From positions 15,872,001 to 15,936,000 of the forward strand of contig OX597835.1 of the NCBI GenBank assembly GCA_951406725.2: a DNA stretch of 64,000 nucleotides. The letters run 5' to 3'. The position numbers were made by a program, and so were the translations under genes. This stretch comes from Octopus vulgaris (lineage: Eukaryota). This document shows, one piece after another, positions 42,951 through 43,179 of this stretch (position 1 is its first letter; each line of letters starts with the position of its first letter). Under the pieces are notes generated by a model. That model did not search any database. It was not told the DNA's origin and saw nothing but the letters and a program-made list of their open reading frames with translations.

Positions 42951-43179
42951 TAACAGAGTTAAAAGATATCGTAAATGTTCAAAAGGATCTTGTGAGGGCC
43001 ACCCTCTTCTTCGACACTATCATTGCTGTGCAGGTTTCATATGTCTGTGTAGAAGATATCACTGCTATTGTAGTTCACAAAATATGATTCATGTGGATAA
43101 TATCATTATACGCCCAGTTGCAATCTCTTTTCTGATTTTTCTTGTATTGACGTTCTGCTCTTGTGAATTCTGTGGATAA
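42951..43179 (+). CDS. Cys-rich peptide gene 2, mature exon B (SNRVKR|YRKCSKGSCEGHPLLRHYHCCAGFICLCRRYHCYC plus hydrophobic tail)
   Basis: Same acceptor, phase and 8-Cys framework. The C-terminal extension is SSQNMIHVDNIIIRPVAISFLIFLVLTFCSCEFCG*; spliced precursor is 124 aa. Confidence 0.8.

Follow-up and report, generated by a model that had tools for sequence, protein, structure and literature searches.

A large octopus knottin gene family with a putative membrane-tethering tail and signs of its repeated loss

Introduction

According to PMC8557429, the CCWamide/agatoxin-like peptides (ALPs) are marked by eight Cys, by an aromatic residue that most of them carry between Cys6 and Cys7, and by an amidated aromatic C-terminus; their genes have three exons with a last intron in phase 2, and no receptor for them is known. 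For the LY6/uPAR family (lynx1), the SLURPs and the snake three-finger toxins, the accessible part of the source describes clustered small Cys-rich genes with a three-finger domain of 60-74 residues, duplicated last exons and a C-terminal anchor region that is ancestral and was lost repeatedly; a stop before the anchor is one route to secretion (PMC10421932). Tethered knottins exist as engineered tools. In the available part of that work, an ICK peptide is followed by a linker and the lynx1 GPI signal, a six-residue linker was sufficient for the tethered peptide to block a channel, and the block was reversed by PI-PLC (PMC9191634). A GPI signal is outlined, in the part of the source at hand, as 20-30 residues behind a small omega residue, with about 10 hydrophilic and then about 20 hydrophobic residues (PMC7125958). 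The Mytilus MgCRP-I family is a lineage-restricted molluscan expansion with a conserved pre-pro region, phase-1 and phase-2 introns, a dibasic site and a positively selected last exon. As far as the accessible text goes, its peptides have six Cys, a non-knottin bond pattern when synthesized and a short C-terminal extension (PMC4558851). The word GPI is absent from the main text of that paper.

Herein, a window of the Octopus vulgaris genome (64,000 nucleotides; contig OX597835.1, positions 15,872,001 to 15,936,000, assembly GCA_951406725.2) was analyzed together with the gene family found in it. Like the CCWamide/ALP genes, the octopus genes encode a signal peptide, a non-conserved spacer, a cleavage site and an 8-Cys peptide on three coding exons, with the peptide in the last one and a phase-2 last intron, and most members carry the aromatic residue between Cys6 and Cys7. 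Unlike CCWamide, which has few paralogues in the species examined in that source, the octopus family has about 60 exons, a hypervariable knot and, in place of the amidated aromatic end, mostly a hydrophobic tail of 26-35 residues. The clustered genes, the repeatedly lost C-terminal region, the duplicated last exons and the stop before the anchor recall LY6/uPAR. However, the octopus core is an 8-Cys knot of 32 residues, which makes the likeness an analogy only, and the anchor was apparently gained on a secreted neuropeptide. The order of parts in the engineered tethered toxins, which are laboratory constructs, recurs here in a candidate natural genomic version. The features named above for MgCRP-I are shared, whereas its Cys number, bond pattern and short extension are not. 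By analogy, the family would most likely work like lynx-type tethered modulators and engineered GPI-tethered toxins, and evolve like MgCRP-I. Neither a natural tethered-knottin family nor a description of the octopus family was found in the literature searched; most subscription papers and bioRxiv supplements were outside its reach and may list these peptides from venom-gland or tissue transcriptomes.

Results

Two knottin genes with tailed and tail-less last exons

The window contains two related knottin genes on the forward strand, each composed of a signal exon (phase 1), a propeptide exon (phase 2) and one or more 8-Cys last exons (Table 1). Gene 2 has three last exons in tandem, A, B and C, each with an acceptor, a UTR and a poly(A) signal. 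Exons B and C are identical (229/229 nt) and continue for 35 residues beyond the eighth knot Cys, with three Cys in this tail besides the eight of the knot. Exon A stops 7 residues after the eighth knot Cys, and gene 1 stops 5 residues after the last one. The initial annotation had described this arrangement, with B and C running past the last Cys, A stopping early and the tail DNA of gene 1 out of frame behind its stop, and every part of it holds in the window sequence.

Table 1 Coordinates of the knottin gene features in the window.
Feature	Position	Strand	Remarks
Gene 1 first coding exon	21712..21778	+	signal peptide
Gene 1 second coding exon	22944..22974	+	
Degenerate last-exon copy in gene 1 intron 2	25603..25724	+	
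Gene 1 last exon	28720..28855	+	8-Cys knot (CxCC variant), tail-less
Gene 1 tail-homologous DNA	28873..28950	+	out of frame, 3' of stop
Gene 2 first coding exon	38664..38727	+	signal peptide, phase-1 donor
Gene 2 second coding exon	39355..39436	+	propeptide, phase-2 donor
Gene 2 last exon A	41680..41827	+	knot with 8 Cys, no tail; poly(A) signal of its own at 42427
Gene 2 last exon B	42951..43179	+	phase-2 acceptor, dibasic site, knot 42976-43071, tail, stop
Exon B C-terminal tail	43072..43176	+	35 residues, polar linker then hydrophobic stretch; KD19 2.49, GES20 -37.4
Gene 2 last exon C	44226..44454	+	same sequence as B; repeat unit 98.7% identical
Gene 3 (sister group) signal-peptide exon	50261..50330	+	phase 1
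Gene 3 candidate second exon	52953-53004	+	putatively linked by order, strand and phase
Gene 3 last exon	56524..56770	+	8-Cys knot with agatoxin-type spacing; 33-residue tail of different sequence, hydrophobic run at end
Gene 4 (sister group) signal-peptide exon	62224..62290	+	likely tailed last exon just past the window, L141:3557-3772

In an alignment by eye, exon A lacks two segments relative to B: one of about 33 nt, whose absence keeps the frame, and one of about 19 nt, whose absence shifts it. In gene 1, 23 extra bases, stop included, follow the last Cys, and for this reason its tail DNA lies behind the stop and out of frame. Exon A is covered by contigs from two public runs with 2 differences and no gap, and the 23-base arrangement of gene 1 recurs in a paralogue 12.5 Mb away (G000:C22:3372021). 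An assembly error behind the tail loss in A and gene 1 is therefore ruled out. Exons B and C lack 14 nt near the end of the family tail, at a site spanned by none of the public-run contigs listed; their last ten residues (codons 43147-43176 in B) are therefore read from what is 3' UTR in other members. A simple stop loss into AT-rich UTR, which the initial annotation had raised as the contrary explanation, fails for 25 of the 35 residues, as the tail frame is conserved in paralogues and in O. bimaculoides (see below). No RNA run is among the public runs listed as carrying the sequence. Among the matches listed for two presumed-RNA public runs, no piece lies over the coding exons, and this has no bearing on expression.

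The knots of A and B differ at 27 of 120 core bases, with flanks that are 97-98% identical. Synonymous divergence between the two knots (41681-41800 vs 42952-43071) is about 0.25, far above the 0.02-0.03 of the flanks, and the same is seen in several pairs. This difference could come from gene conversion of the flanks, clustered multi-base changes or local hypermutation. Upstream of the two genes, at 20565 and 37754 (+), the same TATA-box context is followed by a short untranslated exon and a GT donor; an acceptor lies just 5' of each ATG, which gives a four-exon plan as in MgCRP-I. Elsewhere in the window, two exon-like frames lie at 3184-5316 (+), which by their motifs resemble an M17 leucyl aminopeptidase. 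LINE-like open frames (endonuclease and zinc-finger pieces) are present at 12577-16000 amid many SINE copies.

Size of the family and spread of the tail

Members of the family of genes 1 and 2, referred to as clade I, were collected by protein searches of the animal's own genome and by a DNA profile across the fetched loci, which gave 50 sites. Removal of 4 degenerate intronic relics, 2 fragments and 1 frame-broken exon, and addition of one member on contig C4, left 44 intact last exons; all family counts are lower bounds. Apart from the C4 member, the other 43 lie in four clusters on contig C22. The tail is in frame and hydrophobic in 36 of the 44 and missing in 8. First-exon matches numbered 36, of which 35 have an ATG and an open hydrophobic signal peptide of 21 residues as judged from sequence, and the second exons end in phase 2 without exception (35/35). 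The codon split at the junction of second and last exon encodes Arg in about half of the cases and Ser in the rest, by a rough count. KR precedes the knot in 25/44 last exons. Exactly eight Cys precede the tail in 38/44, and 7, 9 or 10 in the others; the knots of A, B, C and gene 1 have eight.

The tail is also in frame in all five O. bimaculoides RefSeq precursors with a complete end. Conservation of the tail frame, which had been proposed as a check on the tail, is thus found both among the paralogues and in a second species. Random read-throughs in the window produced 26-35 residues with a polar start and a hydrophobic end in 114 of 15301 cases (0.75%), as against 36 of 44 paralogues, which share descent and are not independent trials against this rate.

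Alignment searches of protein databases with clade I returned six proteins, all from Octopus. Five are the O. bimaculoides RefSeq models, and the other is an O. vulgaris prediction that looks chimeric. A seventh database protein is an isoform, and all seven are labelled 'uncharacterized' or 'hypothetical'. These clade-I searches returned no relative outside Octopus, single-sequence searches with exon B gave nothing in Pfam or the protein database, and an alignment-based search for longer relatives found none, which is weak evidence. The exact exon sequences are absent from the protein collection, as is expected for partial proteins.

In many family genes, intron 2 harbours degenerate copies of one last-exon type, and these often lie on the opposite strand. 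The sites include the copy in gene 1 (Table 1), L050/L144, L003:630-920 and L057, with opposite-strand copies in L106-L114, and stops and frame shifts are present in their tails. A subfamily with rearranged Cys (CxCC, one Cys moved), consisting of gene 1, L008, L011:518-649, L012, L016, L052 and L069, has both tailed and tail-less members, and its pattern implies a different fourth disulfide. The locus L105 (G000:C22:2467844-2467982, -) has a first exon with no second or last exon within the fetched range, and L116 has a first exon without ATG next to other exons that look intact. Ten matches on other chromosomes (L058-L066, L074) contained no family exon by the DNA profile, and three further matches (L184, L186, L188), when translated, contained no 8-Cys knot.

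Evolution and fold of the knot

The knot core has an omega of 2.1-2.6 (LRT p 1e-7). Tree length per codon is 26 for the core and 7 for the tail, and it is 2 for the signal exon, measured on a separate tree of 21 sequences. The Cys spacing in exon B is 4-10-0-4-1-4-1 over a core of about 32 residues. A low-confidence structure model contains a hairpin (29-34/37-42) and a tail helix, with a C-C-CC-C-C core and a C-terminal beta hairpin as in knottins. The structure models reached pLDDT 59 and 65, and their best Foldseek matches were ICK toxins at a non-significant E of 4.5-9. The best E for Pfam Toxin_9 was 0.034 in clade I and 2.4e-6 in the sister group described below. Sequence searches of the PDB either had no match or reached spider ICK toxins with an E no better than 0.024; a wide fold search matched the tail helix alone (Z about 2), and the best ESM Atlas feature scores, 0.83 and 0.80, were below the level that counts. 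No LY6 family was among the Pfam matches. Structure matches to MutS came from a poor model and were dismissed.

A sister group with tails of different sequence

A sister group came to light through one diverged last exon that lies shortly beyond the window and a pair of diverged signal exons inside it (genes 3 and 4, Table 1). On C22, 16 such exons were found, comprising 10 tailed, 1 borderline, 4 tail-less and 1 broken, so that a clear tail is present in 10 of the 15 intact ones. The sister-group tails do not align with the clade-I tail profiles (best E 0.18). They have the length and polarity of the clade-I tails, a small-residue triple 21-30 from the end is found in 11/11, and 8/11 end on the hydrophobic run itself. 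This layout, kept without alignable sequence, is the strongest argument for a job of the tail. The profile alignment of clade I and sister group extends a few residues into the linker, and a single origin of the tails with later divergence is therefore plausible. In the sister genes L125 and L126, the usual phase-1 GT donor of the first exon is altered and the last exons look intact; these genes may be pseudogenes or use a shifted donor.

Nature of the tail

After Cys8, the clade-I tail is 26-35 residues long (30 in 21/36) and consists of about 12 polar and then 18 hydrophobic residues, which matches the description of a GPI signal, B and C included. Only 1-9 residues follow the hydrophobic run, with K/R among them in 5/36. 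At the N-terminus, the 21-residue hydrophobic signal peptide agrees with the roughly 20 residues of a GPI-anchored precursor. Frame shifts in tailed members occur only from about codon 21 onward, and the shifted ends stay short; being in frame up to codon 20 partly follows from the definition of a tailed exon. Because the layout is GPI-like, a cytosolic part is lacking, basic residues behind the run are few and frame shifts are tolerated at the end, tethering is well supported and GPI is the likelier means in the family. Judged from these sequence features, it is likely that tailed members are tethered to the cell surface, by GPI or by a transmembrane segment, and the more specific reading of the family tail as a GPI-attachment signal is somewhat favored.

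For the tail, omega is 1.2-1.3 and does not differ from 1 (p 0.35). An omega of about 1 is also obtained for the signal exon, so this test has little power, and it lends the tail no support. Changes in the hydrophobic columns of the tail show no hydrophobic bias (20 vs 13, expected fraction 0.65, p 0.75). As no more than 1.5 nonsense changes would be expected in the tails, the absence of stops carries little information. The omega-site rule is satisfied by 39/41 tails, but also by 94.5% of shuffles. The commonest candidate omega position occurs in 23/36 tails, and no position is invariant. The two tails that miss the rule are those of B and C, with their best omega site 33 from the end. The likeness to a GPI signal or single anchor, first noted for these very exons, is supported for the layout, but B and C are the weakest GPI candidates within the family, and for their anchor GPI and a short transmembrane segment appear about equally open.

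For the family as a whole, it is unlikely that the tail crosses the membrane once as a helix and leaves next to nothing in the cytosol, in which case the knot would be protein-tethered and possibly shed by a protease. Hydrophobicity is sufficient for such a helix in 32/41 tails (GES20 <= -20, with -37.4 in B), KD19 exceeds 1.6 in 30/41, and the B and C tails are among the most hydrophobic of the family; yet several tails (GES -4 to -18) lack the length or continuity that a stable helix needs. The structure model places a helix at residues 54-72, and a basic pair after the run ends one subfamily, but basic residues behind the run are as rare in clade I as stated above, and most sister-group tails end on the run. 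B and C, with Cys-rich last residues, fall outside the omega range of 20-30 residues, which fits a helix, while the free frame-shifting of the extreme tail end does not.

A GPI signal is also to be weighed against a C-terminal propeptide or sorting signal that is cleaved off, with all members acting as free peptides in venom, mucus or another secretion, in conotoxin style. This is distinctly unlikely: there is no conserved dibasic site between knot and tail, and the tail layout persists across unalignable sequences. On the other side, the family shows four features that secreted toxin or defence families typically have: a constant signal exon, a hypervariable knot, a median net charge of +3 and weak matches to spider toxins. 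The intron phases are as in the mussel MgCRP-I family and the Cys are kept in tail-less members, both of which agree with secretion; the tail itself carries no charge and its hydrophobic moment is low (median 0.23), in contrast to a cationic lytic extension. The idea of a toxin tail that is cationic and amphipathic was rejected. None of six short family motifs occurred in the supplement of one octopus skin-mucus proteome, a weak result as its database may omit these genes.

Repeated loss of the tail

In the DNA tree, the tail-less exons require 6 changes, 5 of them forced by strong branches, and a single tail-less clade is rejected (AU p 3e-45). On this tree, the tail is lost at least five times, by different lesions. 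Exon A has internal deletions, gene 1 and its paralogue have gained bases that include a stop, one exon has lost a single base, and in three cases a large deletion reaches into the UTR. The C4 gene is among the latter, and its tail-less state could be old instead of lost. Within clade I, tailed exons are the majority and most likely the ancestral state, with the tail-less exons as losses.

Five tail-less exons each follow an intact first and second exon with no other last exon found in the gene. The other three share a gene with tailed exons in tandem, in three genes including gene 2. The initial annotation had proposed a family that switches between tethered and secreted forms. The two forms do coexist, but the five genes with a single, tail-less last exon point to repeated losses; isoform switching between a secreted A and a tethered B or C is possible.

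All eight Cys are kept in 7/8 tail-less exons despite a core divergence of 11-22% from their nearest relatives (five pairs compared), and most tail-less exons are therefore probably functional. The crude probabilities are 0.01-0.12 per pair, where one pair includes the Cys-losing exon. The value is 0.01 for A vs B and 0.04 for two tail-less sisters that keep all Cys with 16 of 102 core bases differing.

The split would lose its meaning if it were noise of gene birth and death, with an inherited read-through tail that has no job, or tail-less exons in decay, or B and C as orphan duplicates stranded behind the poly(A) site of A and never spliced. Exon A indeed has the first acceptor and its own poly(A) signal, and B and C are identical, but B and C have canonical acceptors and poly(A) signals of their own. 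The tail shows no dN/dS or hydrophobic-bias signal, yet the sister group and the RefSeq models of the second species have it. Relic exons are frequent in family genes, and one tail-less exon lacks one Cys and has a weaker acceptor; set against this are the intact first and second exons of five tail-less genes and the core divergence with all Cys kept in the two comparisons above. Taken together, such noise is very unlikely to explain the split, and mostly functional tail-less exons remain the preferred reading.

Origin of the family

With a tail-less sister-group exon as query, a gene was located on contig C2 (L170:1498-1650, G000:C2, about 126.342 Mb). Its last exon passes Pfam Toxin_9 and ends aromatic-Gly-Gly, and a six-residue motif of this exon has 23 occurrences in the supplement of PMC8557429, where those listed belong to CCWamide entries. 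A profile search of 20 kb found none of its upstream exons, which leaves the last exon only. By its sequence, this exon bears all the marks of an octopus CCWamide neuropeptide.

Profile links connect clade I with the sister group at 93% and the sister group with the C2 gene at 96%, and, weakly, clade I directly with the C2 gene at 28%. The mean similarity score to the C2 gene is 85 for the four tail-less diverged exons, 60 for the tailed sister group and 33 for clade I. The aromatic residue between Cys6 and Cys7 is present in 30/44 clade-I exons and in 16/16 of the set made up of the diverged exons and the C2 gene. The amidated aromatic end is found in the C2 gene only and in 0/44 clade-I exons, and the family is therefore best called CCWamide-derived, not CCWamide. 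With the C2 gene as root, a protein tree of the core (60 rows, 43 columns) was largely unresolved and too weak to count gains. Through this chain of profile links, the family probably descends from an ancient, secreted CCWamide neuropeptide with gain of a tail. Since the knot is linked via the sister group to a secreted CCWamide-like gene, the tether was probably gained and then repeatedly lost. The analogy with Ly6 proteins and three-finger toxins, drawn in the initial annotation, fits the losses of the tail, but the scaffold leads to secreted CCWamide/agatoxin-like peptides.

Discussion

The mechanism we propose is as follows. The signal peptide and propeptide would be removed, with KR before the knot, and a transamidase would cleave at a small residue a short way behind the last Cys. 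This would leave the knot on a short stalk, where it would bind either a channel or receptor of the membrane that carries it or a surface that is foreign or belongs to a mate, and its rapid change would reflect a varying partner. Most family members would sit on the cell surface as naturally tethered, toxin-like peptides, and those that lost the tail, such as exon A and gene 1, would be secreted. In gene 2, the choice of exon A would give a secreted peptide, and that of B or C a tethered one. As for its history, copies of the CCWamide gene may have arisen on the chromosome of C22, gained the tail once, expanded, and lost the tail at least five times.

The full picture is tentative. It holds that CCWamide gave rise to a positively selected repertoire of about 60 natural GPI-tethered knottins, an independent counterpart of LY6/lynx on a knottin scaffold, with repeated secreted releases and with alternative last exons choosing between bound and secreted forms in some genes; we regard it as possible and hold it with reservation. 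If the anchor is real, a neuropeptide scaffold would have gained a membrane anchor, the reverse of the path from LY6 to toxin. The repeated tail losses would offer several natural replicates of the tethered-to-secreted step that preceded the snake three-finger toxins. Tethered members would be self-displaying ligands, which would make a target screen against octopus channels and receptors easy. A real anchor would also mean that a large, almost unannotated gene expansion supplies the octopus with cell-surface modulators or recognition molecules.
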